Sequence record: SRR2962707_543
DNA: 64,000 nucleotides
Direction: 5' to 3' (one strand)
Position 1 is the first letter of the stretch; every line of letters begins with the position of its first letter. The notes beneath the pieces are model-generated. The model worked only from the letters and a program-made list of their open reading frames with translations. It did no database searches and had not been told where the DNA came from. Made by a program: the position numbers and the translations under genes. Positions 18,619 through 49,627 of this stretch are shown one piece after another.

Positions 18619-18677
18619 TTAGACATCTCATGGCGACGATGAAGGTTGCCATGAGCCATCAATTCGCCCAAATACAG

Positions 18678-18708: not shown

Positions 18709-18724
18709 TGAATTGGAGACGATA

Positions 18725-22163: not shown

Positions 22164-22219
22164 GCTTCTTTAACGGCTTGAGCCGTGGCAAATTGGCGCA
22201 AAATCTGGGAAAAACACAA

Positions 22220-25064: not shown

Positions 25065-25823
25065 CTAAGTCAATACGCGGCGCAAGCCATCTTGCACCTT
25101 CAATAAAGCAGGCAAATAGGTTTGTACCATCTCTTCTGGCTCTGATTGCACGGCGGCCATCCCTGTGTTCAGCGCTGCGATAATGTGGCCTCGCGCATTG
25201 TAAATTGGCACTGCGATGGAGCGAAGGCCTAGCTCTATTTCCTGATCATTAATGGCGTAGCCCTGCGTCCTCACTTGATCGATCTCAGCCATAATTTCTT
25301 GCGGTTGTGTGAGGGAATGGGGCGTGCGCGGCGTCAAATCAGACGCCTCGATGATCGCCATTGCCTCATCCCTTGGAAGCGCAGCCAGTAACACGCGGCC
25401 CATCGAGGTTGTATGGGCGGGAAGGCGTGAGCCAAGCCCCAGACCAATGGACATAACGCGGCGTTGCGCGGCGCGGGCCATATAGGCGATTTCAGTGCCA
25501 TCAAGAATTGAAGCTGAGCAGGACTGGCCAATTTGTTCTGACAGTTGATCGAGCCAAGGCTGAACGATTTGCGGAAAAGGAAGCGCCGCCAGCGCGCTCA
25601 TGCCAAGGCGCAAAACACGCGGTGTCAGCGTAAAAAACTTGCCATCATAATCGGCGTATCCAGCCGCGTGGAGCGTCAACAGGCACCGGCGCGCTGTTGC
25701 CCGATCAAGCCCCGTTGCTTCTGCCGCATCGGCGATCGCGAGCTTTGGCCTTTCGGCGCTAAAACATTCTAAAACGCGTAAGCCTTTAACAAGTGAGCCT
25801 ATTTGGTCTGATTTGTTCAACAT
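25065..25823 (-). CDS. pcaR: IclR-family regulator PcaR
   Basis: SLVKGLRVLECF, RATARRCLLTL, GSRLPAHTTSMGRVLLA motifs; divergent from pcaIJF. Confidence 0.9.
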   Translation of the reverse strand: MLNKSDQIGSLVKGLRVLECFSAERPKLAIADAAEATGLDRATARRCLLTLHAAGYADYDGKFFTLTPRVLRLGMSALAALPFPQIVQPWLDQLSEQIGQSCSASILDGTEIAYMARAAQRRVMSIGLGLGSRLPAHTTSMGRVLLAALPRDEAMAIIEASDLTPRTPHSLTQPQEIMAEIDQVRTQGYAINDQEIELGLRSIAVPIYNARGHIIAALNTGMAAVQSEPEEMVQTYLPALLKVQDGLRRVLT

Positions 25824-25871
25824 GCGAACGATTTGCTCTAATATTTGAACAAATGTCAATATGCGAACAAA
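25812..25871. promoter_or_regulatory. Three PcaR/PobR-type operator sites
   Basis: TTTGTTCAACATGCGAACG, TTTGCTCTAATATTTGAACAAA and TGTCAATATGCGAACAAA resemble the PcaR/PobR operator core. Confidence 0.75.
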
Positions 25872-25938: not shown

Positions 25939-26646
25939 ATGGACAAAACAATTAAAACAATCAAAGCGGCGGTTGCCGATATCGGTGACGGCGCAACTGT
26001 GATGATTGGTGGCTTTGGCGGCTCCGGTGCGCCGATTGAACTGATCCATGCGCTGATTGATAAAGCGCCGCGCAATCTAACGCTGATCAACAACAACGCT
26101 GGTAACGGCGATGTTGGTCTTGCCGCGCTGATCCGCGAAGGGTTGGTTGCTAAAATCATATGTTCATTCCCGCGCTCTGCCGATCCGCGTCATTTTACTG
26201 AGGCCTATCTTGCCGGTAAAATTGAGCTTGAGATCGTGCCGCAGGGTACGCTTGGCGAACGCATTCGCGCAGGCGGTGCGGGTATTCCAGCGTTTTATAC
26301 GCCGACCAGCGTTGGCACTGATGTGGCCAAGGGAAAGCCGACTGAGGTTTTTGAAGGACGCACGTATGTTCAAGAACGCTGGTTGAAGGCCGATTTTGCT
26401 ATCATCAAGGCTGAACTGGGCGATGCCATGGGCAATCTGACATACCGCATGGCTGGGCGTAATTTTAACCCGCTTATGGCGATGGCAGCGACACAAACAA
26501 TCGCGCAAGTTTCTTCCATCGTTCCACTGGGTGGCATTGATCCGGAACACGTGGTCACGCCCGGTATTTTCGTGGATGCAGTGGTGGAAGTTTCCAACCC
26601 TGCGCAAGAAGAAGTTCTCAACCGGCAGGGAGCGGTTTACCCATGA
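25939..26646 (+). CDS. pcaI: 3-oxoadipate CoA-transferase subunit A
   Basis: GGFGGSG, NNNAGNG, CSFPR, PQGTLGERIRA motifs; context with pcaR and pcaF. Confidence 0.9.
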   Translation: MDKTIKTIKAAVADIGDGATVMIGGFGGSGAPIELIHALIDKAPRNLTLINNNAGNGDVGLAALIREGLVAKIICSFPRSADPRHFTEAYLAGKIELEIVPQGTLGERIRAGGAGIPAFYTPTSVGTDVAKGKPTEVFEGRTYVQERWLKADFAIIKAELGDAMGNLTYRMAGRNFNPLMAMAATQTIAQVSSIVPLGGIDPEHVVTPGIFVDAVVEVSNPAQEEVLNRQGAVYP

Positions 26647-27329
26647 GCGATTTCATGAATACAGCAAAACTCACCAATGAGCAGATCGCTTGGCGCGCGG
26701 CGCAAGACATTCAGGATGGCGCCTATGTCAATTTGGGTATTGGCTTTCCTGAAATGGTGGCCAAGTTTCAACCAGAGGGGCATCAGGCAATTTTCCATAC
26801 GGAAAATGGTGTGCTTGGCTTTGGCGAAGCGCCGAAAGAGGGCGAAGAAGACTGGGATTTGATCAACGCCGGTAAAAAGGCGATTACGCTTAATCTCGGT
26901 GCTGCATTCTTTCATCATGCTGATAGCTTCGCGATGGTGCGCGGCGGCCATTTGGATGTTGCTATTTTGGGTGCTTATCAAGTAGCGCAAAATGGTGACT
27001 TGGCCAATTGGTCAACAGGCAAAGGCGGCATACCAGCGGTTGGCGGCGCAATGGATCTCGTTCACGGCGCAAAGCGCGTGGCGGTTATCACCGAACATGT
27101 GACGAAAAAAGGCGAACCGAAATTGCTTGATCAATGCACCATGCCGCTTACTGGTGTTGGCTGTGTTTCGCGCATTTATACATCGCTTGCGGTGATTGAT
27201 ATTGAAGAGGGGCACTTTGTGCTTCGCGAAAAATTAGCGCAAATTTCATTTGATGAATTGCAAGCGCTCACCGGTGCAACGCTTCACATTGACGGTGATG
27301 TCGGCACACTCATTGCCGCAGCGCTCTAG
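26643..27329 (+). CDS. pcaJ: 3-oxoadipate CoA-transferase subunit B
   Basis: YVNLGIGFP, HTENG, PAVGGAMDL motifs; ATGA overlap with pcaI. Confidence 0.9.
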   Translation: MSDFMNTAKLTNEQIAWRAAQDIQDGAYVNLGIGFPEMVAKFQPEGHQAIFHTENGVLGFGEAPKEGEEDWDLINAGKKAITLNLGAAFFHHADSFAMVRGGHLDVAILGAYQVAQNGDLANWSTGKGGIPAVGGAMDLVHGAKRVAVITEHVTKKGEPKLLDQCTMPLTGVGCVSRIYTSLAVIDIEEGHFVLREKLAQISFDELQALTGATLHIDGDVGTLIAAAL

Positions 27330-27338: not shown

Positions 27339-28541
27339 ATGGTTGATGCCTTTATATGTGATTATGTGCGCACGCCGATTGGCCGTTTTGGCGGAGCATT
27401 AGCCTCTGTTCGCGCCGATGATCTTGGCGCTATTCCGCTCAAAGCGCTCATGGAGCGCAATAGCGCGATGGATTTTGATGCGATTGATGATATTATCTTT
27501 GGCTGCGCTAACCAAGCTGGCGAGGACAATCGCAATGTGGCGCGGATGTCGCTGTTGCTGGCGGGCATTGATAAAAGAGTATCAGGCGCAACGGTAAACC
27601 GGCTTTGTGGCTCGGGCATGAATGCGGTGATTGATGCTGCACGAATGATCAAAGCGGGCGAAGCTGATTTGGTGATTGCGGGCGGTGTTGAATCGATGAG
27701 CCGCGCGCCATTTGTGATGCCAAAAGCTGAAAGCGCCTATTCGCGCAGTGCTGAAATCTACGACACGACGATTGGCTGGCGGTTTGTTAATCCGCTGATG
27801 AAGGCCCAATATGGCGTGGATTCGATGCCTGAAACAGGCGAAAATGTTGCTGAAGAATTTAACATTTCGCGTGAAGATCAGGATATCTTTGCATTAGCGA
27901 GCCAGACAAAGGCCGCGACCGCGCAAGCCAAGGGTCGCTTGGCCAAAGAGATTACGCCGGTCATTATTCCGCAGCGCAAAGGCGATCCAATTATCGTGGA
28001 CCGTGATGAGCATCCCCGTGCGACAACCATTGAAGCATTGGCAAACTTACGCACGCCGTTCCGCGAAAATGGGTCTGTGACGGCGGGCAACGCGTCAGGC
28101 GTCAATGATGGCGCGGCTGCGCTCATCATCGCGTCAGAAGCTGCAGCAGAAAAACATGGGCTAACGCCGCTTATCCGCATTATTGGCGGTGCGGCGGCAG
28201 GTGTTGCCCCGCGCATTATGGGCTTTGGACCGGCACCTGCTGCGCAAAAGCTGATGGCGCGGCATAATCTGACCATAGAGCAGTTTGATGTGATTGAGCT
28301 TAACGAAGCATTTGCGAGCCAAGGCTTGGCGACCATGCGTGCGCTTGGGATTGCGGACAACGATAGCCGCGTTAATCCAAATGGCGGCGCAATCGCACTT
28401 GGTCATCCGCTCGGCATGTCGGGCGCGCGCATAACAGGCACGGCTGCGCTGGAGCTTCAGCTGAGTGCAGGGCGCTATGGTTTGGCCATGATGTGCATCG
28501 GCGTGGGGCAGGGCATCGCAATAGCGCTTGAACGCGTTTAA
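27339..28541 (+). CDS. pcaF: 3-oxoadipyl-CoA thiolase
   Basis: ANQAGEDNRNVARM, NRLCGSG, DTTIGWRF, GHPLG, CIGVGQG motifs. Confidence 0.94.
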   Translation: MVDAFICDYVRTPIGRFGGALASVRADDLGAIPLKALMERNSAMDFDAIDDIIFGCANQAGEDNRNVARMSLLLAGIDKRVSGATVNRLCGSGMNAVIDAARMIKAGEADLVIAGGVESMSRAPFVMPKAESAYSRSAEIYDTTIGWRFVNPLMKAQYGVDSMPETGENVAEEFNISREDQDIFALASQTKAATAQAKGRLAKEITPVIIPQRKGDPIIVDRDEHPRATTIEALANLRTPFRENGSVTAGNASGVNDGAAALIIASEAAAEKHGLTPLIRIIGGAAAGVAPRIMGFGPAPAAQKLMARHNLTIEQFDVIELNEAFASQGLATMRALGIADNDSRVNPNGGAIALGHPLGMSGARITGTAALELQLSAGRYGLAMMCIGVGQGIAIALERV

Positions 28542-28558
28542 TCTTCCCAAGATGAACT

Positions 28559-28589
28559 AAAAATAGTGGCCCTAGGCCGCTATTTTTTT
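28559..28589. terminator. Bidirectional intrinsic terminator
   Basis: AAAAATAGTGGCC-CTA-GGCCGCTATTTTTTT between convergent pcaF and dctM. Confidence 0.8.
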
Positions 28590-28612
28590 GTCTATCTATC
28601 GGCGATTTACGC

Positions 28613-29935
28613 TCAATAAATGGCCCAGACGAGCGCCAATGTGATGGATGGAAAGAGCGTTAGAATGATCACGCGCACAATATCGGTCACCACGAATGGA
28701 AGCGCGCCTTTAAAGGTTTCGCCGATCGGAATGTCTTTTGCCATATTGTTGATGATGTAGAGGTTCATGCCGACAGGCGGCGTGATGAGGCCCACTTCAA
28801 CAACAATCAATACGAGAATGCCAAACCATAGACCGAAATCTTCAACGGGGATGCCAAAGTCCAGTGCCAACATGATTGGGTAAATGATCGGGACGGTTAG
28901 CAAAACCATGGACAGTGAATCCATGATGCAGCCAAAGGCCAGATACATAATCAACACAATTGTAAGCACCATCCAAGGCGAAAAGCCTTGTTCTCCCACC
29001 CAGATTGCGCCTGTCTGTGGCAGCTGCGTCAGGGCAAGGAAGCTGTTGAAGAGGCTTGCGCCTAGAATGATCAAGAAGATCATCGCTGTTGAACTTGCCG
29101 TTGTTAGAATGGCTTGTTTGAGCTTATCCCAACTCATTTGACCAGACAGGACAGAGGCGATGCCTGTGCCTGCGCAGCCGACAGCTGCTGCTTCTGTTGG
29201 GGTAAAGATACCGGCGTAAATGCCACCAACAACAACAAGGAAAATGGTAAGGACCGGCCAAACGGTCGCTAAGGCCACCATGCGCTTTGCCCATGGCACG
29301 CGGTCGCGAACCGCGGCTGAATTGGGCGCTAGATGTACCCAGATGGAAATTGCAATCATATAGCCGATGGCAGCTAGAATGCCAGGCAGCATAGCAGCAA
29401 CAAAGAGTTTAGCGATGTTCTGTTCGGTTAAAATTGCATAGATCACCAAGATGACGGACGGGGGTATCAAAATGCCCAATGTTCCGCCTGCCGCTAATGC
29501 GCCTGTTGCCAGTGATCCTGGATAACCATAACGCTTGAGCTCGGGCAGGGCGACTTGCCCCATGGTGGCAGCGGTTGCCAGTGATGAGCCGCAAATTGCG
29601 CCAAAACCGGCACAGGCACCAATTGCCGACATGGCAACGCCGCCCTTGCGGTGTCCTAGAAAACTCTCTGCAGCTTTAAACAGCGATGCAGACATGCCGG
29701 AAAGCGTCGCAAATTGCCCCATAAGCAGGAACAAAGGAATAATTGAAAAAGAGTAATTCGAAAAAAGGCCATAGGTGACGTTTTTCAATTGGCTCAGCAT
29801 GAAATTTGGCGAACCGGTCACCAGATACACACCGCCGAATCCAATAGTGAGCATTGCGACGGCAATGGGTATGCGCAGGAATATTAGCGCCAAAAGAACC
29901 GGAAACGACCAGAGTGCGAGTTCGATGTTAGACAT
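28613..29935 (-). CDS. TRAP transporter large permease (DctM)
   Basis: IPLFLLMG, CGSSLATAA, GGTLGILIPPS, ITPPVG motifs. Confidence 0.93.
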   Translation of the reverse strand: MSNIELALWSFPVLLALIFLRIPIAVAMLTIGFGGVYLVTGSPNFMLSQLKNVTYGLFSNYSFSIIPLFLLMGQFATLSGMSASLFKAAESFLGHRKGGVAMSAIGACAGFGAICGSSLATAATMGQVALPELKRYGYPGSLATGALAAGGTLGILIPPSVILVIYAILTEQNIAKLFVAAMLPGILAAIGYMIAISIWVHLAPNSAAVRDRVPWAKRMVALATVWPVLTIFLVVVGGIYAGIFTPTEAAAVGCAGTGIASVLSGQMSWDKLKQAILTTASSTAMIFLIILGASLFNSFLALTQLPQTGAIWVGEQGFSPWMVLTIVLIMYLAFGCIMDSLSMVLLTVPIIYPIMLALDFGIPVEDFGLWFGILVLIVVEVGLITPPVGMNLYIINNMAKDIPIGETFKGALPFVVTDIVRVIILTLFPSITLALVWAIY

Positions 29936-30506
29936 TGAGCGCCTCTTGATCTGATGAAGTGAATAGCGCTTTTAGTGAGCGCAAGACGCAAAATATGGCA
30001 ACGTAAACAAAGGCAGCAGCGCCGATCATGCCAGCCGCGTAGCCTATCCAAATTGGATATTGCAGGATGAAGGTTGTCTCGCCGTAACTGTGTTTGTCTA
30101 ACATACCCACCCATAGGCGCCATGTTAGGATGGTCGCGACTGCGAGCATAAGCAAGTCTGAAATGACATCAAGAATACGGTTAAACCCAGCTGAAAAATT
30201 GTTTGTGAACAAGTCCACTGTCGCGTGGCCTCGGCGTAAATGACAAAGCGGTAAAAAGCAGAAGATCGCAAATCCAACGCCCAATTCTATCAATTCAAAG
30301 TCGCCTTTGATTGGGGATAGGCCAAAGGAAATGAGCGCTCTGCCAGAAATAGAAATACACGTCATTATCACCAATGCAACGAGGACAAACCCACCAGCAA
30401 AAGCTGTATAACACGAGATACGATCTGCCGTGCGCGACAAGAAATTGTACAAATTATTGCTCCTAATGGGAGAAGTCGGGCCAGATATGATCTGGCCCGA
30501 TAGCAA
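29928..30506 (-). CDS. TRAP transporter small permease (DctQ)
   Basis: Four TM segments, GHATVD motif; lies between dctP and dctM. Confidence 0.88.
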   Translation of the reverse strand: MLSGQIISGPTSPIRSNNLYNFLSRTADRISCYTAFAGGFVLVALVIMTCISISGRALISFGLSPIKGDFELIELGVGFAIFCFLPLCHLRRGHATVDLFTNNFSAGFNRILDVISDLLMLAVATILTWRLWVGMLDKHSYGETTFILQYPIWIGYAAGMIGAAAFVYVAIFCVLRSLKALFTSSDQEALNV

Positions 30507-30509
30507 TGA

Positions 30510-31541
30510 TTACATTGAGTGCTTATCAATCAGGCTGTTGGCCTCTTCAATAAGTGCCTCACCATCAATGCCGCTTTCTTTCATTTGGCCAATCCAGCGG
30601 TCAATAACCGGCTGTGATGCGTCTTTCCAACGCTGCGTTTCTGCCTCATCAAGTTTGATGATGTTGTTGCCTGCTTTGATCGCAATTGCTTCGCCCGGCT
30701 CATCGCCTTGCTTCATCATTTCAGCCGCAAACTGTGTAAGTTTTGCACCAGATTCAGCGTCAAGAATTGCTTTTAGATCATCGGGCAAAGAGTTGTATTT
30801 ATCTTTGTTCATGACGATCACAATCGTCGCTGTGTAAAGCGCTTCTTCACCTGAGAATGTGGTGTGGTTTTTCACAAGTTCTGTTAGGCGAATTGACGGT
30901 GTTACTTCCCATGGGATCACTGTGCCGTTGATCACGCCTTTTGAAAGGGCTTCTGGAATGGCAGGCAATGGCATGCCGACCGGTGTTGCACCTAGTTCAG
31001 CGAGAAGATCGTTGATAATGCGTGTTGGTCCACGCATAGATTTACCCTTCATATCTTCAAGGCTTGTGATTGGATCATTTGAGTGGATGAGGCCTGGGCC
31101 GTGCACAAAAGCAGCCAACACTTTAACGTCTTTAAATTCGTTGTTTTGGAAATCTTTTTCCACCATGTCCCAGTAAGCTTCAGATGTAGCGACTGAATCT
31201 TTCATAATGAACGGAAGCTCAAATACTTCAGAGCGCGGGAAACGGCCCGGCGTATAGCCAGTCAATGTCATGGTAATGTCGGCAACACCATCGCGGGCTT
31301 GGTCGAACAGTTCTGGCGGACGACCACCGAGCGACATAGCATCAAAATGTTCGATTTTGATGCGTCCGTCTGATGCTTTAGCCAGTCTTTCGCCCCATGG
31401 CTTCAAGATTTTAGCAGGCACGGTAGCTACAGGTGGCAAAAATTGGTGCAAACGCAATGTTACTTCCTGCGCGGAGGCAGGAATTGCGGTCAGCGCAATG
31501 GCGCTTGCAGCCAGTGCTGCCATAAATGTACGTCTTTTCAT
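30510..31541 (-). CDS. TRAP substrate-binding protein (DctP), probably for aromatic acids
   Basis: Signal peptide; LHQFLP, GYTPGRFP..EVFELPF, conserved Arg in MRGP. Substrate inferred from context. Confidence 0.88.
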   Translation of the reverse strand: MKRRTFMAALAASAIALTAIPASAQEVTLRLHQFLPPVATVPAKILKPWGERLAKASDGRIKIEHFDAMSLGGRPPELFDQARDGVADITMTLTGYTPGRFPRSEVFELPFIMKDSVATSEAYWDMVEKDFQNNEFKDVKVLAAFVHGPGLIHSNDPITSLEDMKGKSMRGPTRIINDLLAELGATPVGMPLPAIPEALSKGVINGTVIPWEVTPSIRLTELVKNHTTFSGEEALYTATIVIVMNKDKYNSLPDDLKAILDAESGAKLTQFAAEMMKQGDEPGEAIAIKAGNNIIKLDEAETQRWKDASQPVIDRWIGQMKESGIDGEALIEEANSLIDKHSM

Positions 31542-31627
31542 ATTAATCTCCCAGATGTTTGAAAATCGTTGTGTTACTTTACATTAACCGGTCTTATTCC
31601 AAACCGGAAAATTCACTTATTGCCCTG

Positions 31628-32506
31628 TCATTTTTCAAGAAGTCGGCGTGCGTTGTCCTTCAAAATGAGCGGGCGAACTTCATCGCGAAAGGGTGCTGCT
31701 TCAAAATCAGCTAACCATCTGTCTGGCGTAATGGCTGGCCAGTCAGAGCCAAACAGCATTTTTTTCTTCAAGATAGTGTTCGCATAATGGATGAATTGCG
31801 GTGGAAAATACTTCGGCGACCAGCCTGACATATCAACGTAGACATTGGGCTTATGTTGCGCGACCGAAAGACCTTCCTCAGTCCACGGAAAAGAGGGGTG
31901 AGCGAGGACAATTTTCAAGTCCGGAAAGTCCACGGCTACATCATCCACATGGATGGGGTTTGAATATTTAAGCCGCATACCCATGCCGCCATGCATGCCA
32001 GAACCAACGCCGGTTTGGCCGGTGTGGAAAAGCGCAATTGCGCCTTCCTCTTCGATCGCTTCATAGAGTGGATAGGCGAGGCGGTCGTTAGGGAAAAAGC
32101 CCTGCATCGTAGGGTGAAATTTAAAGCCGCGTACACCAAATTCACGCACCAAACGGCGTGCTTCGCGTGCGCCCGCTTTTCCTTTTGCCGGATCGATGGA
32201 TGCAAAGGGAATTAGAATGTCGCTGTTTTCGGCGCAATGCTTGGCAACTTCCTCATTGGAATAGCGGCGAAAACCGGTTTCGCGCTCGGCATCAACAGGG
32301 AAGATGACGCCAGCAATTTTGCGTTCACGGTAATAGGCTGCCGGTTCGGGCACTGTTGGCAACATGCCTTGTGCGCCTGCTGGGTTTTTAAAATATTTTG
32401 CCATGCCTGCTTGAAATTCATCATAACCATCATCGCGCGGACCACAGCATGGCTCTTCTGCATGGGTGTGGAAGTCGATGGCAATAACATCATCAAAATT
32501 GATCAT
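31628..32506 (-). CDS. Amidohydrolase_2 family protein; probable hydroxyphenyl-beta-ketoacyl-CoA hydrolase
   Basis: IDFHTH, FKFHP, FHTG, LAHP, DMSGWSPKY, FGSDWP motifs. Context with fcs, ech and marR resembles Agrobacterium fabrum Atu1421 and Rhodococcus CouO clusters. Confidence 0.8.
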   Translation of the reverse strand: MINFDDVIAIDFHTHAEEPCCGPRDDGYDEFQAGMAKYFKNPAGAQGMLPTVPEPAAYYRERKIAGVIFPVDAERETGFRRYSNEEVAKHCAENSDILIPFASIDPAKGKAGAREARRLVREFGVRGFKFHPTMQGFFPNDRLAYPLYEAIEEEGAIALFHTGQTGVGSGMHGGMGMRLKYSNPIHVDDVAVDFPDLKIVLAHPSFPWTEEGLSVAQHKPNVYVDMSGWSPKYFPPQFIHYANTILKKKMLFGSDWPAITPDRWLADFEAAPFRDEVRPLILKDNARRLLEK

Positions 32507-32973
32507 GAACGTTTCTCCATTCCTATGAATTTTTTAAGCAGTACAGTGAGTTGCTCTAATTCTGCATCGGTTAGATTTTCGCGCTCTATCTGTTGCAGCT
32601 CGTTAAAAAGCTTTTGATTATGGGCAACAAATGCTTCACCTGATTTGGTGAGCGCAAGGTGCACGGACCGGCGATCATCGGGTGGCACGATGCGCTCCAC
32701 ATAGCCTGCGCGCACCATGCGGTCGGTGAGTTTGGTCATGTGTGCCGGCTTGATATTGAGTTTTCGTGCAATCGTGCCTTGGCGCAGATCCTTGTTGAGA
32801 CCAATCACGGATAACACCGTAAATTCGCCTGGGCGGATGTCTTGTGCTTCCATCACCTGATAAAAATTGCGAAAGACTTTAACCTGCGCAAGGCGCACCA
32901 AAAATCCAAGGGAGTTTTCAATCTCACCAAGGACCAATTTGTCTTTACGTTTTTTTGTGATGGTTGTTTCCAT
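32503..32973 (-). CDS. MarR-family regulator (HcaR/CouR/FerC-like)
   Basis: SLGFLVRLAQ, winged helix, DDRRS..L.LT motif; inside the hydroxycinnamate cluster. Confidence 0.85.
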   Translation of the reverse strand: METTITKKRKDKLVLGEIENSLGFLVRLAQVKVFRNFYQVMEAQDIRPGEFTVLSVIGLNKDLRQGTIARKLNIKPAHMTKLTDRMVRAGYVERIVPPDDRRSVHLALTKSGEAFVAHNQKLFNELQQIERENLTDAELEQLTVLLKKFIGMEKRS

Positions 32974-32975
32974 GC

Positions 32976-33755
32976 TTATTTACCGTCCGGCCGTGCCACT
33001 TTGCTGCCTGCCTTTTTTTGCAAAAATGCATTGAGGCGTTCTTCGGCTTCGGGGCTTGTCACAGTCAGAGAGGCGATGAAGCTTTCAACAAACAGGCCAT
33101 CATCGCTACCCATATCTTGGATGCGTGGTAGCGCTTGAATGATGGCGTAGTTTGAAATTTCTGCATTGGTGGCTGCTTTTGTGGCCAGCTCAATGGCTTT
33201 GTCGAGTGCTTTGCCTTCCGGCACAACATATTGAACAATATTCCACTGTTCGGCTTGGTGAGCATCGACAGTGCGTCCCGTCAGCATCATATCGGTCATG
33301 CGCGGAACGCCTAATATGCGCGCTGTGCGCACCGACCCGCCGCCGCCAACAAAAATGCCGCGTGTGCCTTCTGGCAATGCGAAGAAGGCGCTTTCATCAG
33401 CGACGCGCACATGGGTTGAAGAGGCTAATTCTAAACCGCCGCCAACAACGGCACCATGCAGGGCTGAGAACCAAGGCATTTTGCCGCGTTCAATGCGATC
33501 AAAGATGCGGTGCCATTGGCGCGATCCATGCACGCCTTCAATGGCTGATTTCTTGACGTGTTCGGCAAGATCAAGGCCAGCGCAGAAATGAGGACCTACG
33601 CCATAAATTACGCCAGCTTTCGCGCCATTTTCGGCCAACGTGATCGCTTGATCAAGCTCTTCAACGAAGGCATCGGAAATAGCATTGCGTTTTTCTGGCC
33701 GGTTCAGCGCAACAATCGCTACGTCACCTTTGAATTCAACCGTTAGGTATTTCAT
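32976..33755 (-). CDS. Crotonase / enoyl-CoA hydratase (feruloyl-CoA hydratase-like)
   Basis: LNRPEKRNA, FCAGLDL, GGGLELA, ALPEG motifs. Start set to ATG 33755 (MKYLTVEF). Confidence 0.88.
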   Translation of the reverse strand: MKYLTVEFKGDVAIVALNRPEKRNAISDAFVEELDQAITLAENGAKAGVIYGVGPHFCAGLDLAEHVKKSAIEGVHGSRQWHRIFDRIERGKMPWFSALHGAVVGGGLELASSTHVRVADESAFFALPEGTRGIFVGGGGSVRTARILGVPRMTDMMLTGRTVDAHQAEQWNIVQYVVPEGKALDKAIELATKAATNAEISNYAIIQALPRIQDMGSDDGLFVESFIASLTVTSPEAEERLNAFLQKKAGSKVARPDGK

Positions 33756-33790
33756 TCGCTGCGTCCCACTTTTCTTTTTTTTAATAATTA

Positions 33791-33823
33791 GACTATCCAT
33801 GGAAATAGTTTCCTTGTAAACAA
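33791..33823. promoter_or_regulatory. Overlapping dyads in the ech/fcs divergent promoter; candidate MarR operators
   Basis: ACTAT-N8-ATAGT (33792-33809) and TAGTTT-N6-AAACAA (33806-33823). Confidence 0.55.
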
Positions 33824-33827
33824 AAAA

Positions 33828-35687
33828 ATGGGAGAACGCATTTGGGACGGTAGTATGGTTGAGCTGGGAGGTAGCCGCTTCAATCTTTGGGCGGCGAAAA
33901 TATTAAGCGAGACGCGGGACGATGGGTCTATCGTTGTGTGGCAGGAGGGCGAATTGCCATCCTATCCAACACGGATGTCTGATCGTATTGCCCATTGGGC
34001 AAAGCAAACACCTGATCAAATTTGGATGGCGGAGCGGGGGCCAGATAATCAGTGGATTAAACTCACTTACCGCGACATGTTCCAACAAATTCGCGCCATT
34101 GGGCAATGTTTGCTAGATGTCAATTTGTCTGTGGATCGGCCTTTGCTGATTTTATCGGGCAATTCGATATCTCACGCTTTGATGGCGCTGGGCGCTCAAT
34201 ATGTGGGTGTTCCGTCTGCTGCTGTCGCACCGGCCTATGCGCTTTCTGGCGGCGAATATATTAAGCTGCGGGCAATTCGCGATCAGATTACGCCCGGCGC
34301 AGTCTTTGTCGATAAGGCCGCAAAATTTATGCCTGCTATAGAGGCATTGTTTGCAGATATTCCCCTGTTCGCCGTTGAGGGTGAAAATACGATTATGGCT
34401 TGGGATACGGTTTTAAACCGGACACCGAGCGAAGCGGTTGATCGCGCCAATGCTGCCACAGGGCCTGATACCGTGGCCAAATTTATGTTCACATCAGGAA
34501 CCACAGGTTCGCCAAAGGCGGTTGTACAAACCCAAAAAATGCTGTGTTCAAACATGGCAATGGTTTCAGATTGTTTTGCCTATTTTAAAGATGAACCGCC
34601 GATCTTTTTAGATTGGGCGCCGTGGAACCATGTTGCATCGGGTTCTAAAGTTTTTAACATGACGCACTATAATGGTGGCACCTACTATATCGATGGGGGC
34701 AAGCCTACGCCGGTTCATATTGGCCAAACGATTGCCAACATTCATGATGTTTCCCCCAATTGGTATTTCAATGTGCCAAGCGGCTATGAAATGCTGGTTG
34801 AGGCGATGCAGGCTGACAAGAAATTGGCCCATGCTTTTTTTAAGAACGCGAAAATCTTGATGTATGCAGGCGCAGCAATGGGTGCGCATACGTGGCAGGC
34901 ACTTGATAAATTAGCAATTGAAGTGACCGGCGAACGGGCATTGTTATGTTCTGGCCTTGGGGCAACAGAAACGACGCCGTTCGCCCTGTTTTGCACAGAT
35001 TACCAAGATGTACCTGGCAATGTTGGGATTCCTGCAAAGGGGCTGCAACTCAAGCTCGTACCCAATGGCGAGAAGTTTGAAGCACGCTTAAAAGGCCCGT
35101 CAATCACACCTGGCTATTGGCGCAATGAAGCGCTGACATTGGAAGCTTTTGATGAAGAAGGTTATTATTGCTTGGGCGATGCGCTGCGCTTTGCTGATCG
35201 CGGCGATGCGTCAAAGGGTTTCTTCTTTGATGGGCGCGTCGCTGAAAACTTTAAAATGGCCACGGGCACTTGGGTCGCCGTTGGTGCGTTGCGGGTGGCG
35301 CTTTTAGACGCTCTCAAAGGCATTGCGCGCGATGTGGTGATTGTTGGCGAGGGACGCAGCGAACTAACCGCTATGCTAGTGCCGTTTCGTCCTGAAGCCG
35401 AACGTATCGTTGAAAACGGTTCTGCTATGTCTGACGAGGAATTATTTAATCATCCGCAACTGGTTGCAAAAACCAGTGCGCTGCTTGCAGCCTATAACAG
35501 TGAAAATTGCGGCGCATCGCTGCGTGTGATGCGGGTGCTCTTTTTAACCGAGCCTTTAGACCTTGATGCCGGTGAGGTGACCGACAAAGGATCTGTCAAT
35601 CAACGCGCGGTGCTCAGCCGCCGCGCAGATTTGGCAGAACTTCTTTATCGCAATGATCCACGGGTCATTCATGCAGCGCGGCTATAA
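33828..35687 (+). CDS. fcs: Feruloyl-CoA synthetase (hydroxycinnamate-CoA ligase)
   Basis: FTSGTTGSPK, DWAPWNH, GLGATET, GRVAENFK..TGTWV, EVTDKGSVNQR motifs. Start could be 33855. Confidence 0.88.
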   Translation: MGERIWDGSMVELGGSRFNLWAAKILSETRDDGSIVVWQEGELPSYPTRMSDRIAHWAKQTPDQIWMAERGPDNQWIKLTYRDMFQQIRAIGQCLLDVNLSVDRPLLILSGNSISHALMALGAQYVGVPSAAVAPAYALSGGEYIKLRAIRDQITPGAVFVDKAAKFMPAIEALFADIPLFAVEGENTIMAWDTVLNRTPSEAVDRANAATGPDTVAKFMFTSGTTGSPKAVVQTQKMLCSNMAMVSDCFAYFKDEPPIFLDWAPWNHVASGSKVFNMTHYNGGTYYIDGGKPTPVHIGQTIANIHDVSPNWYFNVPSGYEMLVEAMQADKKLAHAFFKNAKILMYAGAAMGAHTWQALDKLAIEVTGERALLCSGLGATETTPFALFCTDYQDVPGNVGIPAKGLQLKLVPNGEKFEARLKGPSITPGYWRNEALTLEAFDEEGYYCLGDALRFADRGDASKGFFFDGRVAENFKMATGTWVAVGALRVALLDALKGIARDVVIVGEGRSELTAMLVPFRPEAERIVENGSAMSDEELFNHPQLVAKTSALLAAYNSENCGASLRVMRVLFLTEPLDLDAGEVTDKGSVNQRAVLSRRADLAELLYRNDPRVIHAARL

Positions 35688-35693
35688 TCGCTG

Positions 35694-36929
35694 CTAGACA
35701 GCGGTGAGCGCCTTTATGAGCGCGGGCAAATTACGACCTGCATCTTCAAATGCCTGTTTGGAAATGGATATGCCTGCATTCATCACTTTGCGGGCAGACA
35801 TGTGTTCAACCGCAGAATTGATGGTTTCAACACTGATTAGCGTGCCATTTCTAAAGCCGCAGCTTACGGTTTTGCCTTCGCTGGGCGTGTAGCAGATAAT
35901 ATCATCAGCTTCTGAAACCATGCCCGCAATCTGCAGTTTCCTATCGCCTTGATCGCTCCAGAACCAAGGGATGGCAGCGTAGGTTCCTTCTGCGCCCGTC
36001 AGGCGTTTAGCGATGAGCCGCGCATGATCGGTTGCAGCTTGCACCGATTCAAGGCGGAACATTTTGCCGGTCAGTGGTTCAGGAAATAGGCAACAGTCGC
36101 CAAGCGCGGAAATCGAACTATCTGAGGTTAGAAGCGTTGCGTCGACTTCAATGCCGTTTGACGTTTTCAATCCTGCTTCTTCAGCCAATTCCTGATTGGG
36201 GATGACGCCAGCGGCGACAATAACCATATCACCTTGAACGATTTCGCCCGATGCAAGGCGCACACCGCTCACGTGATCTTGGCTGTTGGACAAGACAGCG
36301 TCAACGAAATTGCCAAGGCGGACATCAGTGCCGATTTGTTCATGAAACGCTAGAAAACTTTGTGAAATCGGCTCGGAAACAGCGCGGGCCATCAGGCGGT
36401 TTGCGCCTTCTAAAACGGTCACCTCAAGGCCAGCAGCGCGGGCAACAGCGGCAAATTCCAACCCGATAAAGCCGCCGCCGATAACGATGGCATGTTTGCC
36501 ATGGGCCATTTCAGCGCGCAGTCGATCTGTGTCAACATCGGTACGGATGGAATAAACGCCTTTGGCATTCAGCCCTTCAATGGGCGGAATGCGGTTGCGG
36601 CTGCCGGTGGCTAAAATTAGATGATCGTAGCTTATTTCTGAGCCGATATCTGTGCTGATCGTTTTTGCTTCACGATCTATTTTCGTGATCCGAGTACCGG
36701 TCATCAGTTCAATATTATGCTGCTCAAAAAACTCTTGCGGACGCAAATTGATCTTCGAGGCATCGCCGGTTTTCAAATATATTTTTGATAGAGGAGGGCG
36801 CTGATAGGGCAGGCTTGTTTCATCGCCAATGAGCGTGAGCGAACCTTCATATCCATCTTGGCGCAGGAACGCCGCCATCTGCAAGCCACCTTGGCCAGCG
36901 CCAATAATTACGATTTTCTCAAGTGTCAT
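35694..36929 (-). CDS. FAD-dependent ferredoxin reductase (putidaredoxin-reductase type)
   Basis: GAGQGG, PYQRPPLSK, GGGFIGLE, RLESVQ, PWFWSDQ motifs. Confidence 0.92.
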   Translation of the reverse strand: MTLEKIVIIGAGQGGLQMAAFLRQDGYEGSLTLIGDETSLPYQRPPLSKIYLKTGDASKINLRPQEFFEQHNIELMTGTRITKIDREAKTISTDIGSEISYDHLILATGSRNRIPPIEGLNAKGVYSIRTDVDTDRLRAEMAHGKHAIVIGGGFIGLEFAAVARAAGLEVTVLEGANRLMARAVSEPISQSFLAFHEQIGTDVRLGNFVDAVLSNSQDHVSGVRLASGEIVQGDMVIVAAGVIPNQELAEEAGLKTSNGIEVDATLLTSDSSISALGDCCLFPEPLTGKMFRLESVQAATDHARLIAKRLTGAEGTYAAIPWFWSDQGDRKLQIAGMVSEADDIICYTPSEGKTVSCGFRNGTLISVETINSAVEHMSARKVMNAGISISKQAFEDAGRNLPALIKALTAV

Positions 36930-37057
36930 ATCTGCGTTTCAGGTAGGTTTATAATGAGGCCGCTAAGCGCTTCTGTAACGCGAATTTGGCATGAAAGTCG
37001 ACTCGTTTTCTATTGCTTTATTGCGTCATCAATTTGGCAAAATTGAATTATTGTCGT
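36926..37057 (-). pseudogene. Internally deleted [2Fe-2S] ferredoxin (putidaredoxin type) remnant
   Basis: Manual translation gives (ACG)TIIQFCQIDDAIKQ*KTSRLSCQIRVTEALSGLIINLPETQI*. GGGAG RBS 6 nt before the ACG; TGA overlaps the reductase ATG; the C-X5-C-X2-C motif is missing. Confidence 0.85.
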
Positions 37058-37083
37058 GTCGATCTCCCATAACAATCGTGTGA

Positions 37084-38259
37084 TCAGTTGAGTTTGACAT
37101 TGAGATTGAGTGGACCTCGAAAACCAAATCCCCACCACTTTACTTTGTCTGGATCCACAATTTCCATATTTGGAAAGCGGTCAAAAATCATCGGCAATAG
37201 TATTTTGCCGATGGTTAGGCGTGACAAATGTGTGCCCATGCAATGGTGCGGTCCGCTGCCGAAGCTTTGATGCGGTGAACGCTTGCGAAATACGTTGAAT
37301 TGATCGCCTTTCTCAAACAAATCCTCATCGTGATTGGATGAGGCTTGAATGGTCATGACAACATCGCCTTTTGGAATGTCGACGCCGCGAATTGTAGTAT
37401 CTTGCGTGACCAGTCTTGAGCTTGCTTGAATGGGCGCGACCCAGCGCACACCTTCATCAAAGGCAAGGCTCCAGTCGCCACTGTTTTTCAATTCGTCTAA
37501 TTGGTCGCGGTTGTTGAGGAGTCCGTAAAGGATGGTGAGCATCGCATCACGTGGTTCATTGATGCCGCCGCCAATGGCAATCTTCATGTTGGCGACGATC
37601 TGCGAATAGGCAATCGGATCATCTGCATTGACCATCACGGAGAGGGCTGATTGGTCTGGGTTTGCTTTTAGATATTCGGCACGCTTTTCAAAATGAGCGT
37701 TCATTTCCAAATTCGCGCGGTCAATGCGCTCAAAGGGTTCATCAAACCATCCAAAATTGCCGGAACCATCAATGATCGCTTGTGACCAGAATTGCATCTC
37801 TTCGTCGGTTGCTTCTGGTATGCCGAGAATGACCGCCAAAATACGCGCGGAAAGCGGTCCGGCTAATAGTGGAAATAGGTCGACTACTTCTTCGCGTGGT
37901 AGGCGGTCAAAATATTCATTAGCCAGTTTTTCGTAGGCCGGCGTCCAAATTGTTTTCAGATTTGTGGGCGAGAATGTCGGCATCATTGCCATGCGTTCGC
38001 GCATATGTTCGGCGCCGTCTTTGCGCATCAAAGTATGGGCATTGAGCGCCCGTTTCATCGGCGTGTTGGGATCGTCGGAACTAAACAACTCCGGATTGTC
38101 TTTGACCATGCGCGTATCGGCAGCCTTGGTCAAAAAGGTTTTGCCAACAGCTTTAACGCGGACAACGGGCGTTTCACTGCGCATTTTTTTATAGATCGGA
38201 TAAGGGCTCGCGATCAGCTCTTCAATTTTGATGTCGTCATTTAATGGTGCAAGCGCCAT
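37084..38259 (-). CDS. Cytochrome P450, CYP104 / VirH2 (PinF2)-like
   Basis: Haem motif FGSGPHHCMG, ExxR (EGVRW), I-helix GGGINEPRD. FSSDDP.TPM, AHTLMRKDG and WVAPIQASSRLV match my recollection of Agrobacterium VirH2. GGAGG RBS. Confidence 0.85.
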   Translation of the reverse strand: MALAPLNDDIKIEELIASPYPIYKKMRSETPVVRVKAVGKTFLTKAADTRMVKDNPELFSSDDPNTPMKRALNAHTLMRKDGAEHMRERMAMMPTFSPTNLKTIWTPAYEKLANEYFDRLPREEVVDLFPLLAGPLSARILAVILGIPEATDEEMQFWSQAIIDGSGNFGWFDEPFERIDRANLEMNAHFEKRAEYLKANPDQSALSVMVNADDPIAYSQIVANMKIAIGGGINEPRDAMLTILYGLLNNRDQLDELKNSGDWSLAFDEGVRWVAPIQASSRLVTQDTTIRGVDIPKGDVVMTIQASSNHDEDLFEKGDQFNVFRKRSPHQSFGSGPHHCMGTHLSRLTIGKILLPMIFDRFPNMEIVDPDKVKWWGFGFRGPLNLNVKLN

Positions 38260-38354
38260 GGTCAATTCCTCCCAAATGCTTGGCGGCACGAGCCAAGCAT
38301 GTCCTGAACTAGCGCTCAATTATTCATAAGACAATTCGATGATACTGATTTTCA

Positions 38355-38373
38355 ATATCTAATTTTCTGATAT
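38355..38373. promoter_or_regulatory. LysR-type operator
   Basis: ATATC-N9-GATAT dyad containing T-N11-A, between the divergent P450 and LysR genes. Confidence 0.6.
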
Positions 38374-38406
38374 AGTGAGTCATTGTCGAGTGGAGGATAA
38401 ATTGTC

Positions 38407-39339
38407 TTGGTGATTTCCAAGGGTGTTAAAGCGGCCAATATTGATATTGCTGCGCTGCACGTTTTGCATCTGGTTCATGAGAATTTGTCATTTACCAAAG
38501 CCGCAGAGACTTTGCGGGTCAACCAATCGGCCATCAGCTACACGGTTGAAAAACTGCGGGAGACATTTCACGATCCTTTGTTCTATCGCCAAGGCGGCGG
38601 CATTGTTGCGACACGTCGATGTCATGAGATCGTCAAAACAACATCGCGCTTGGTTGCTGAGTTTGAAGAATTAACGCAGCCCAATGTATTCGATCCGGCA
38701 AATGCTGATATTGAATTTACGATTGCGTGTAATTTCTATGAACGCCAAATCATGATGCCCTCTGTCATTCCCGCCCTAAACCGGACTGCGCCCGGCATTC
38801 GATTACGGTTGATGAATGCCACATCTCAAGGCTTAGACCAGCTTAAAAAAGGCGAGGCGGATTTGCTTATCGGGCCAGCTTTTTCAGATGCGCATGATAT
38901 CTATGCGCGGAAATTGCGCGATGAGGATTATGTTTGCGTCATGGACAAGGGCCATTCATTGGCCAAGTCTAAATTAAGCCAGCAAGAATATGTGGGTGCA
39001 CGTCATGTGGTCGTTGTTTATGGTGGTGGTTGGCGATCTCCCTATCTTATCCGCATGGAAGAACTTGGTTGGACTTTTCTTCATGCACTGACTGTGCCAA
39101 GCCCTGCGGGCTTGCAAAACATGATACAGGGCACAGATCTGATCGCGACCGTGCCAAGGGCAATTGCTTTATCCTATGGAAGTAGCATTCATATTGCTGA
39201 AATTCCTTTGAAGGTAGATTTTGCGCTTCACATGGTCTGGACAACGCGCACGCATAAATCGTCACTGCATATGTGGATGCGTGATTTGATCTTCGGGTGT
39301 GTTAACTTAGGAGCGGGCAATCTTGCGGGTGAAATATGA
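38407..39339 (+). CDS. LysR-family regulator (NahR/DntR-like)
   Basis: SFTKAAETL.VNQSAIS..KLRETFHDPLF HTH; TDLIATVP and H.WMR motifs. Confidence 0.9.
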   Translation: MVISKGVKAANIDIAALHVLHLVHENLSFTKAAETLRVNQSAISYTVEKLRETFHDPLFYRQGGGIVATRRCHEIVKTTSRLVAEFEELTQPNVFDPANADIEFTIACNFYERQIMMPSVIPALNRTAPGIRLRLMNATSQGLDQLKKGEADLLIGPAFSDAHDIYARKLRDEDYVCVMDKGHSLAKSKLSQQEYVGARHVVVVYGGGWRSPYLIRMEELGWTFLHALTVPSPAGLQNMIQGTDLIATVPRAIALSYGSSIHIAEIPLKVDFALHMVWTTRTHKSSLHMWMRDLIFGCVNLGAGNLAGEI

Positions 39340-40010
39340 TTAATCAGAGCATTGAATGTGTAATTTTTGACTGCGATGGCGTGCTCATTGATAGCGAGAT
39401 ATTAAGCGGCAAAATTTTGATCGAGCAATTGGCAACGGTCGGCGTCGATGTTGATTTTCCCTATGTGCAAAAGCATTTTTTGGGACGTAGCTGGGTTAAA
39501 ATTGTCGATGAAATGCGCAAAAGCTATGGCCTCGATTTGGGCGAAGCATTTGAGAACGGTTATCGTGAGAGGTTGCTCGCAGCATTTGAGACTGACTTAA
39601 AGCCAGTTGACGGTGTTGTTGACGTGCTGCGAAATTTGTCTGTTCCCTATTGTTTAGCAACCAGCAGCAGTCCGCGCCGTGTTGCGCGCTCGCTCCAAAT
39701 TCTTGGGTTGACCGATTTTTTTGGTGCCAATGTGTTTACCGCATCTCAGGTAAAAAACGGAAAGCCAGCTCCGGATCTTTTCCTATTTGCTGCTGATACA
39801 ATGAGAATGAAGCCTGAGAATTGTCTTGTTATCGAAGACAGTTTGCCGGGCGTTCAAGCCGCCCAAGCAGCTCAGATGAATGTTGCGCGTTTTATGGGTG
39901 GTAGTCATCTGCTTGGGCAATTAGAAGCCAGTCAACAATCACTTGCTGATGTGCTGCACTTTGACAAATGGGAATATTTCTTCTCAATATCGCCCAAATT
40001 AAAAAAATAG
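39336..40010 (+). CDS. HAD-family phosphatase
   Basis: FDCDGVLIDSE, ATSS, GKPAPDLF, IEDS motifs. Confidence 0.9.
   Translation: MINQSIECVIFDCDGVLIDSEILSGKILIEQLATVGVDVDFPYVQKHFLGRSWVKIVDEMRKSYGLDLGEAFENGYRERLLAAFETDLKPVDGVVDVLRNLSVPYCLATSSSPRRVARSLQILGLTDFFGANVFTASQVKNGKPAPDLFLFAADTMRMKPENCLVIEDSLPGVQAAQAAQMNVARFMGGSHLLGQLEASQQSLADVLHFDKWEYFFSISPKLKK

Positions 40011-47593: not shown

Positions 47594-49627
<2,034 letters not shown>

Follow-up and report, generated by a model that had tools for sequence, protein, structure and literature searches.

The window analyzed here, a 64,000-nt stretch of one strand of sequence record SRR2962707_543, holds at positions 28613-39339 a cytochrome P450 gene of the VirH2/CYP104 type with a ferredoxin reductase and a regulator gene. 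These lie next to a gene set predicted to take up and shorten plant hydroxycinnamates, itself directly beside the pca genes for protocatechuate. Genes were called from a listing of open reading frames (ORFs) together with Pfam and NCBIfam scans of the window proteins. The region contains the following features (aa, amino acids; TRAP, tripartite ATP-independent periplasmic transporter):

28613-29935, minus strand: TRAP M subunit, DctM (Pfam DctM)
29928-30506, minus strand: TRAP Q subunit, DctQ (Pfam DctQ)
30510-31541, minus strand: TRAP P subunit (binding protein), DctP (Pfam DctP)
31628-32506, minus strand: Amidohydro_2 protein (Pfam PF04909, E 1e-50)
32503-32973, minus strand: MarR-family regulator (Pfam MarR)
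32976-33800, minus strand: enoyl-CoA hydratase (ECH; Pfam ECH_1; NF006013, 373.6 bits, above the cut-off of 232)
33828-35687, plus strand: Fcs-type CoA synthetase, 619 aa (Pfam AMP-binding; NF009232/PRK12582, 670.5 bits, under the cut-off of 777)
35694-36929, minus strand: NAD(P)H-ferredoxin reductase (FdR), 411 aa (Pfam Pyr_redox_2 and Reductase_C)
36926-37009, minus strand: stub of a 2Fe-2S ferredoxin (Fdx), last 27 codons and stop (tblastn with orthologous ferredoxins)
37084-38259, minus strand: CYP104 (VirH2-type) P450, 391 aa (Pfam p450; Ti-plasmid homology)
38407-39339, plus strand: LysR-family regulator, divergent from the P450 (Pfam HTH_1 and LysR_substrate)

The original prediction had read this region as a ferulate-to-protocatechuate pathway with the P450 as its O-demethylase. 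Every gene that it named was recovered in its place by Pfam and NCBIfam. Its map is corrected at the P450, for which it had taken a TTG at 38319 as the start, and it gains a pcaD gene at 14014-14835. An intact ferredoxin gene and a short-chain dehydrogenase/reductase (SDR) gene are absent, so that the proposed local system is present but incomplete.

The likeliest start of the P450 is the ATG at 38259 and not, as first taken, the TTG at 38319: the alignment with eleven orthologues begins at the residue that this ATG encodes, and GGGAGGA lies 8 bases upstream. The characteristic motifs FGSGPHHCMG (residue 333, heme-thiolate), EGVR (269) and GGGINE (230) are intact. A tblastn search of the P450 against 72,556 plasmid records returned 139 records at E <= 1e-100 with 60-80% identity, 117 of them from Agrobacterium. 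On Agrobacterium plasmids, the matching gene stands second in a tandem pair of P450 genes; it encodes 391 aa and is 61.3-62.1% identical to the window P450 over 390 residues (61.3% for pTiH25_79 and 61.5% for pTiBo542). In both of these tumor-inducing (Ti) plasmids the order is P450-P450-virK-virA, with the matching gene just before virK and virA, and the first tandem P450 of Ti plasmids is 23% identical to the window protein. Both tandem genes are annotated plainly as 'cytochrome P450', with no virH2 name; we take them to be virH1 and virH2 (CYP103 and CYP104), consistent with their position. By P450 nomenclature, at least 40% identity to the founder defines a family and more than 55% a subfamily.

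The window P450 is also 61-73% identical to 15 chromosomal relatives, with best matches in Roseobacteraceae, Paracoccaceae and marine Hyphomicrobiales. We computed a tree of 21 rows, namely 18 in-group sequences and three VirH1-position sequences as outgroup (the partial L014 and L016 and the later loci L045-L050 were left out; L numbers denote loci and G numbers genomes). The in-group split from the VirH1-position rows with an SH-like approximate likelihood ratio (SH-aLRT) support of 99, and the Ti rows were nested among the chromosomal ones. The window P450 fell into a fully supported group of seven with Roseobacter sp. GAI101, Sulfitobacter, Octadecabacter, Sagittula, Hoeflea and Nitratireductor. 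Identity and phylogeny thus place it inside CYP104, as a true relative of VirH2 and orthologous to the VirH2-position P450, as originally predicted. A survey table gives 13 CYP104A and four CYP103A genes for Alphaproteobacteria and states no functions for them (PMC8197338).

The nearest solved structures by sequence were 6g71 (E 6e-62), GcoA (E 6e-44) and 8u09 (E 5e-40). When a model built from a 12-sequence alignment (mean predicted local distance difference test score, pLDDT, 82.7) was compared by fold, 'CYP1232A24 from Arthrobacter', the guaiacol-bound GcoA and the syringol-bound SyoA ranked highest, at 26-28% identity and template modeling (TM) scores of 0.77-0.79. All of the nearest solved proteins, whether by sequence or by fold, are aromatic O-demethylases. 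Alignment and model therefore group the window P450 with such enzymes, in a family without a solved member. Because identity is only 26-28%, it stands outside the families of GcoA/SyoA and CYP1232A24; for CYP255A in particular, identity to GcoA and SyoA is 26-27% (below 40%), and no fused GcoB-type reductase partner is present.

Linkage of this P450 to phenolic-acid genes recurs in other genomes. We compared 23 non-Agrobacterium loci with an orthologue of at least 61% identity (15 from species-representative genomes, two from plasmids and six from the family sample described below); they are not independent, as they include the near-copies L008/L010/L011, L006/L015 and L003/L016 (both Nitratireductor). 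The P450 has pca genes within 10 kb in four loci: the order is P450 / AraC / PobA-like / pcaCHGB in L012 and P450 / BKACE-pcaGHC / LysR in L006 and L015, and in L002 pcaFJI-R lies 7 kb from the P450. Genes for ECH, amidohydrolase or Fcs occur near it in three: L005 carries the whole fcs set, L017 reads P450-Fdx / MarR-SDR-fcs / ECH..amidohydrolase, and in L045 the P450 comes 20 bp after the amidohydrolase gene in the same orientation. A DctP of TarP-like sequence, 52-74% identical to that of the window, is near the P450 in four (L003, L004, L005, L009). The linkage of CYP104 with both fcs-cluster and pca genes, for which the original prediction had proposed a synteny search, is thus found. In L044, a LigM gene (E 2e-161 to 5tl4, 'Vanillate/3-O-methylgallate O-demethylase') flanks fcs / ECH-MarR-amidohydrolase and, judged by gene order, occupies the slot equivalent to that of FdR-P450 in the window.

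The same loci yielded several further observations. A gene of the BKACE family (beta-keto acid cleavage enzyme, PF05853) lies in or near the pcaCHG operon of three roseobacter-type loci (L006 3839-4675, L015 11197-12033 and L012 18098-18934). No pcaIJ match was found within the fetched flanks of L006 and L015, and the BKACE gene may substitute for the CoA-transferase step on beta-ketoadipate. L048 (G038:C12) carries at 9605-12845 a tandem duplication P450-Fdx-P450-Fdx, each P450 copy being 64-65% identical to that of the window. L002, on a plasmid of Paracoccus sp. MA, has at 6185-14752 an operon-like row of a GntR gene, a branched-chain-type ABC transporter, two P450s, a 2Fe-2S ferredoxin and a reductase. 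Its P450s pair a VirH1-position-like protein (23% identical to the window P450) with a VirH2-like one, which makes it the sole non-Agrobacterium locus with both among the loci seen. A DUF3237 gene adjoins the P450 in L003 (11178-11651) and the amidohydrolase in L017 (17009-17488).

Demethylase gene content was compared in a sample of 121 genomes of one family, many of them incomplete; the Fisher tests below ignore relatedness. The amidohydrolase (at least 69% identity) occurred in 22 genomes, a CYP104 orthologue (at least 62%) in 7, a LigM-type gene (E <= 1e-80) in 21 and a VanA_C gene (E <= 1e-30) in 17. None of the seven CYP104 genomes had LigM, and one (G104) had VanA_C. The amidohydrolase was present in 5 of the 7 CYP104 genomes versus 17 of the 114 others (one-sided Fisher p = 0.002, uncorrected for relatedness). 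Across the 22 amidohydrolase genomes, the P450 was the sole candidate of the three demethylase types in four, LigM was present in eight and VanA in five, and six had none of the three. A hydroxycinnamate cluster with the P450 and with neither VanA nor LigM was found in G005, G029, G038 and G055. Five further P450-bearing genomes (G001-G005) all had an fcs homologue, and VanA_C was present in two (one strong and one weak match) and LigM in none; the LigM query found its matches in the 121-genome sample, which served as a positive control. Neither demethylase gene was found in the genomes of the isolates that carry L007 and L014. By these counts, CYP104 and LigM appear complementary in the relatives.

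The reductase gene lies directly downstream of the P450, with 154 bases between P450 stop and reductase start. Its product contains no ferredoxin domain and shares 50-55% identity with the reductases encoded after P450-Fdx in L002, L004, L005, L019, L049 and L050. A divergent LysR gene, 42-53% identical to that of the window, adjoins the P450 in seven loci (L003, L004, L005, L016, L019, L046, L050). Of a class I three-component system, the window thus holds the linked reductase and lacks the linked intact 2Fe-2S ferredoxin. When six orthologous ferredoxins were used as tblastn queries, only their last 25-26 residues aligned, at 37006-36929 and with 58-68% identity, and no other ferredoxin of this type was found in the 64 kb at E < 1e-3. 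The stop of the stub overlaps the start ATG of the reductase. Immediately upstream of the stub is an in-frame TAG, and none of the 27 codons is ATG, GTG or TTG; some 80 N-terminal codons, with three of the four cluster cysteines, are missing.

Elsewhere, 14 of 22 assessable non-Ti loci have an intact gene for a 2Fe-2S ferredoxin of 106-121 aa as the immediate neighbor of the P450 (identified by Pfam Fer2 for three), and the order P450-Fdx-FdR occurs in six. The remaining 8 of the 22 have no ferredoxin near the P450, nor has either Ti locus, where redox partner genes are lacking nearby altogether. A linked ferredoxin is therefore not obligatory for CYP104-type P450s. Because its linked gene is truncated, the window P450 must use a ferredoxin encoded elsewhere, as the Ti loci imply.

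The truncation is not an assembly slip, because two metagenome contigs from separate studies span the reductase start, the stub and the P450 end without gaps (716 bases with 56 differences; 928 bases with 51 differences). Two short contigs, X3 record 19 and X4 record 27, also extend to the stub but end less than 31 letters beyond it, and were not counted as bridging. Among public sequencing runs, none contained the window itself (highest share of words 0.10), and no RNA run was listed as containing it. The bridging contigs are 92% and 94.5% identical to the window, so the truncated form is common to relatives 5-8% diverged. Among the 40 of 228 differing places listed, which were drawn from several contigs, third codon positions account for 18 of the 25 P450 differences and for 8 of the 10 reductase differences; this bias (26/35) hints at continued selection on the truncated form. 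In the non-alignable spacer between P450 stop and stub, a promoter-like match (TTGTTA, 17-base spacer, AATAAT) lies at 37047-37075 on the minus strand. It could drive the reductase after loss of translational coupling, although the scan of 28400-39500 was overall at chance (15 promoter-like matches versus 13.9 expected and 14 terminator-like matches versus 15.1 expected from shuffled sequence).

On the uptake side, the TRAP genes follow the order P, Q, M along the minus strand. The window DctP matches PDB entry 7nr2 (E 1.4e-111). Among the fold matches of its model, 'TarP_Sse in complex with coumarate' ranks first (TM 0.86 at 51% identity), ahead of a binding protein from a marine metagenome, described as 'specific for aromatic acid ligands', and of TarP_Csal with caffeate, ferulate or coumarate. 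Sequence and fold thus point to a TarPQM-type hydroxycinnamate transporter.

The amidohydrolase is the best-conserved gene of the cluster, being 69-85% identical to genes that adjoin fcs or ech in L005, L017, L026, L028 and L041-L045, and it stands beside fcs or ech in every cluster examined (nine loci and the window). Its sole PDB relative, BB4693, is distant and uncharacterised. Gene context and analogy with CouO suggest that it acts as the beta-ketoacyl-CoA hydrolase of side-chain shortening. The MarR gene has a counterpart within the corresponding cluster of L017, L041 and L044 and, again by analogy, probably encodes a CouR-like repressor of the hydroxycinnamate genes. The hydratase is of the ordinary crotonase type (best PDB matches 3hin, E 1.7e-73, and 4izb, E 4.6e-68), with orthologues of 49-62% identity in the fcs clusters of relatives. 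The product of 33828-35687 is predicted to be an Fcs-type hydroxycinnamate-CoA synthetase; it is 37-55% identical to synthetases of relatives whose genes are flanked by SDR, ECH, TRAP and amidohydrolase genes. L041 and L042 carry the full set, SDR-ECH-TRAP-MarR-fcs-amidohydrolase. The SDR, a 3-hydroxyacyl-CoA dehydrogenase, adjoins fcs in L017 and has orthologues of 49-54% identity in L005, L029, L041 and L042.

Two other roles for these genes were considered. A non-beta-oxidative route through hydroxycinnamoyl-CoA hydratase-lyase (HCHL) and vanillin is disfavored: no HCHL entry was prominent among the top PDB and NCBIfam matches of the hydratase, the window has no aldehyde dehydrogenase, and the clusters of relatives carry SDR and amidohydrolase genes. 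The second-ranking 4izb-4izd, which we take to be DmdD, would suggest a role on dimethylsulfoniopropionate (DMSP) or methylthioacryloyl-CoA, which we set aside given the TarP-type transporter and the Fcs-type synthetase. As a separate observation, a long acyl-CoA dehydrogenase gene (538-607 aa as called) lies directly 3' of the amidohydrolase gene in three Rhizobiaceae-family hydroxycinnamate clusters (L041 10671-12494, L042 10335-12125 and L043 7871-9487), and no counterpart adjoins the window cluster.

The pca genes and the features around them are as follows:

14014-14835, plus strand: pcaD, 3-oxoadipate enol-lactonase (NCBIfam TIGR02427 equivalog, 323.9 bits, cut-off 255.85)
22178-22633, plus strand: pcaC (Pfam CMD; TIGR02425, 190.8 bits, above cut-off)
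22626-23360, plus strand: pcaH (Pfam Dioxygenase_C and PCDO_beta_N)
23363-23971, plus strand: pcaG (Pfam Dioxygenase_C)
23999-25060, plus strand: pcaB (Pfam Lyase_1; NF004631 above cut-off)
25065-25859, minus strand: IclR-family regulator of the pcaR type (Pfam HTH_IclR and IclR_C)
25939-26646, plus strand: pcaI (Pfam CoA_trans)
26643-27329, plus strand: pcaJ (Pfam CoA_trans)
27339-28541, plus strand: pcaF (Pfam Thiolase_N/C)
28559-28587: terminator-like hairpin between the convergent pcaF and dctM (13-pair stem, then a T run)

By family assignment, pcaC, pcaH, pcaG and pcaB encode protocatechuate 3,4-cleavage and the lactone steps, and pcaI, pcaJ and pcaF the 3-oxoadipate CoA-transferase and thiolase. 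The pcaD gene, 7 kb upstream of pcaC and beyond the range first considered, completes the protocatechuate beta-ketoadipate set (pcaHG, pcaB, pcaC, pcaD, pcaIJ, pcaF); its product is 37% identical to an alpha/beta hydrolase whose gene adjoins pcaB in L012. The products of pcaI, pcaJ and pcaF are 74-83% identical to those of L002, where the thiolase is annotated as pcaF and the transferases as 3-oxoacid CoA-transferase subunits, and the pcaR-type IclR is 75% identical to that of the IclR gene adjoining pcaIJF on this Paracoccus plasmid. In agreement with the original prediction, which saw no vanAB, ligM or pobA in the window, none of the 66 window ORFs scanned contains a Rieske/VanA_C, LigM-type GCV_T or PobA-type FAD_binding_3 domain, nor an aldehyde dehydrogenase domain. 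The window has a G+C content of ~50% and is chromosomal, because it contains the housekeeping genes thiC, thiG, cobS/T and dus (Pfam).

Two side observations concern the remainder of the window. A second 3-oxoacid CoA-transferase A/B pair (TIGR02429 subfamily), distinct from pcaIJ and followed by a MerR regulator, lies at 17293-19126, 3 kb upstream of the pca genes. ThiC is encoded at 47693-49627, with thiG, a thiE-like gene and thiD close by; used as a query against the genomes of five relatives, it gave no match at E <= 1e-50, which need not reflect real absence.

We consider it probable that the P450, a member of the VirH2 family, is a catabolic aryl O-demethylase that serves the adjacent pathways, acting either on vanillate after or on ferulate before side-chain shortening. 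Three catabolic modules for plant-type phenolic acids would then stand side by side on the chromosome. The first would import ferulate, caffeate and p-coumarate and shorten their side chains in a CoA-dependent manner, using the TarPQM-type TRAP transporter, the Fcs-type synthetase, the enoyl-CoA hydratase and the amidohydrolase-type beta-ketoacyl-CoA hydrolase under a MarR repressor. The second would be a class I P450 system with its own LysR, built around the orthologue of Agrobacterium VirH2, in which electrons would pass from NAD(P)H through reductase and ferredoxin to the P450 and O2. The P450 would hydroxylate the methoxy carbon of guaiacyl-type acids, and the hemiacetal would collapse to formaldehyde and a catechol, turning vanillate into protocatechuate or, before side-chain shortening, ferulate into caffeate. 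In the third, pcaHG, B, C, D, IJ and F would carry protocatechuate to the tricarboxylic acid cycle. Ferredoxin and 3-hydroxyacyl-CoA dehydrogenase would be supplied from elsewhere in the genome. We infer the substrate, the order of steps and the standing of the P450 as this organism's demethylase. Ferulate as the direct substrate fits because TarP-type binding proteins occur without fcs in the fetched stretch of L003, L004 and L009, and vanillate fits because of the pca linkage. The catabolic role first proposed for the P450 is thus strengthened by the kinship with VirH2, the linkage to fcs and pca and the LigM gene in the equivalent slot of L044, and weakened by the truncated ferredoxin and the absent dehydrogenase.

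Several observations weigh against this assignment. Only 3 of the 23 other loci have the P450 adjacent to fcs-cluster genes, and in three genomes (G001, G002 and G004) the P450 is either on another contig than the fcs cluster or far away from it. In the window itself, the P450-reductase unit is convergent with fcs, has its own regulator and stands outside the fcs transcription unit. The cognate ferredoxin gene is truncated, together with the overlapping-stop arrangement before the reductase start. The fcs-linked SDR, searched with the L017 protein, has no match in the 64-kb window at E <= 1e-5, so that the 3-hydroxyacyl-CoA dehydrogenase must be encoded elsewhere. The window P450 forms the longest end branch of its seven-member clade (0.29 versus 0.024-0.21). 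LigM or VanA occurred in 1 of 7 CYP104 genomes versus 35 of 114 others, which is not significant (one-sided Fisher p = 0.33). Both G001 and G104 have a VanA-like gene in addition to the P450, which therefore need not be the vanillate demethylase. Our literature search found no activity report for CYP104 members outside Agrobacterium.

Some of these points would suit a different reading, in which LysR, P450 and reductase form an independent module for another methoxylated or alkylated aromatic compound, feeding protocatechuate or detoxifying rather than providing the demethylase of the ferulate pathway. The divergent regulator, the orientation toward fcs and the VanA-like genes of G001 and G104 agree with it, as do the 20 of 23 other loci with no fcs, ech or amidohydrolase in the fetched flanks. 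So do L019, where a P450-Fdx-FdR operon runs into a TRAP transporter with a binding protein that shares only 27% identity with the window TarP, and L002 and L014, where the P450 is paired with branched-chain-type ABC transporters. We nonetheless regard such a module as unlikely, since the pca linkage in four loci, the TarP-type linkage in four and the tandem placement behind the amidohydrolase in L045 point to phenolic-acid catabolism; the enrichment of the amidohydrolase in CYP104 genomes and the LigM gene of L044 argue in the same direction.

A demethylase system in decay, with the P450 and reductase as leftovers of little or no function in this lineage, strikes us as quite improbable. It would account for the stub of 27 ferredoxin codons preceded by an in-frame stop and devoid of a standard start codon, for the contrast with the 14 of 22 relatives that keep an intact ferredoxin, for the missing SDR orthologue and for the long end branch of the P450. 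Both remaining frames, however, are full length with intact motifs. The P450 alone differs at seven columns that are invariant across the rest of the 18 sequences, in line with the private changes of L012 (7) and L013 (6). The same truncated arrangement persists in the contigs of two studies, differences from environmental relatives fall mostly on third codon positions, and a linked ferredoxin is lacking from the Ti loci and eight others as well.

That the enzyme, as proposed for Agrobacterium, mainly lowers methoxyphenolic toxicity or quenches a signal without supplying carbon is highly improbable. Reviews do credit VirH2 with a protective conversion of ferulate to caffeate, which is less toxic, and report a greater sensitivity to phenolics in a virH2 mutant (PMC6683767, PMC4086400, PMC3866890), but here and in relatives the gene lies among pca, pobA-like, fcs-cluster and TarP genes and not among vir genes. 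The view of VirH2 as a detoxifying enzyme, from which the original prediction started, is incomplete, as the title of Brencic et al. 2004, cited in PMC4086400, contains the word 'mineralization'. Protective and catabolic roles are compatible in any case, because the products are substrates of the neighboring pathway.

O-demethylation decides the entry of guaiacyl-type phenolics from lignin and plant cell walls into ring cleavage and is a bottleneck in engineered lignin conversion; the textbook enzymes for this step are the Rieske-type VanAB and the folate-dependent LigM. We put forward, tentatively and as slightly more doubtful than not, that CYP104-type P450s form an overlooked third class of catabolic vanillate/ferulate O-demethylase, one that replaces VanAB or LigM in many marine and soil Alphaproteobacteria, with VirH2 as a recruit and not the prototype. 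Our literature search, with subscription journals and supplements outside its scope, turned up no account of CYP104 genes located on chromosomes within the catabolic clusters of Alphaproteobacteria from sea or soil, and none of CYP104-LigM complementarity. A 2026 review of lignin funneling to protocatechuate contains no occurrence of VirH-type enzymes. If true, the proposal would explain the protocatechuate route in relatives that have the hydroxycinnamate cluster and neither VanA nor LigM, provide a new enzyme for the conversion of ferulate and vanillate, and let VirH2 be seen as a catabolic gene that was borrowed. GcoA and SyoA, the P450s now in use, were solved with the neutral phenols guaiacol and syringol (entry titles), and CYP104 enzymes would act on carboxylated substrates. 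The truncated ferredoxin offers a small natural experiment on the dependence of a P450 upon a dedicated redox partner.

Compared with known systems, the transporter is closest to TarPQM, known from Rhodopseudomonas palustris and from the TarP_Sse and TarP_Csal structures. The window DctP shares 51% identity with TarP_Sse, solved with coumarate or cinnamate, and 42-43% with TarP_Csal, solved with caffeate, ferulate or coumarate, and by this likeness would bind a similar ligand. The cou cluster of Rhodococcus jostii RHA1 resembles the window in having an amidohydrolase gene and a MarR gene, a likeness at the level of protein family. CouO, of the amidohydrolase superfamily, performs the last step of beta-oxidative deacetylation according to the accessible text of PMC4737184, and CouR, a MarR-type repressor, responds to p-coumaroyl-CoA (PMC3610893, PMC4737184). 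RHA1 is an actinobacterium, and the same portion of PMC4737184 describes no P450 in its cou cluster. GcoA and SyoA (CYP255A) and CYP1232A24, the nearest solved structures, suggest the same chemistry for the window P450. As far as the accessible text of PMC13406360 goes, GcoA uses the single fused reductase GcoB, whereas the window has a separate reductase of the putidaredoxin-reductase type and, ancestrally, a separate 2Fe-2S ferredoxin.

The SpG8-1b genes of Agrobacterium fabrum (Atu1415-1421) share with the pathway predicted for the window a CoA synthetase, an enoyl-CoA hydratase and a final cleavage to the aromatic acid. According to PMC7797058, this hydroxycinnamate pathway runs through a synthetase, hydratase, dehydrogenase and cleavage enzyme and includes a demethylase that depends on folate, with O-demethylation to protocatechuate followed by the pca pathway. 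The demethylase of A. fabrum is the tetrahydrofolate-dependent Atu1420 of the LigM type, whereas in the window this slot holds the P450 and its reductase; for the dehydrogenase step (Atu1415 type) the window has no gene. The layout of L044, with LigM beside fcs / ECH-MarR-amidohydrolase, matches that of A. fabrum.

VirH2 of Ti plasmids (PinF2; CYP104) accepts many methoxyphenolics. Its P450-dependent demethylation of ferulate was reportedly published between 1999 and 2004, and the 2004 work of Brencic is said to have reported the conversion of vanillate to protocatechuate as well. In the accessible text of two reviews, VirH2 is an O-demethylase that converts ferulate to caffeate and also acts on other phenolics (PMC6683767, PMC4086400). 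The window P450 belongs to the same family and clade at 61% identity, and like the Ti gene it has no intact ferredoxin adjoining. Unlike VirH2, it is chromosomal, has no VirH1-type partner P450 and is accompanied by its own reductase and LysR; and whereas VirH2 belongs to the vir regulon, the window gene lies among genes for uptake, side-chain shortening and ring cleavage.

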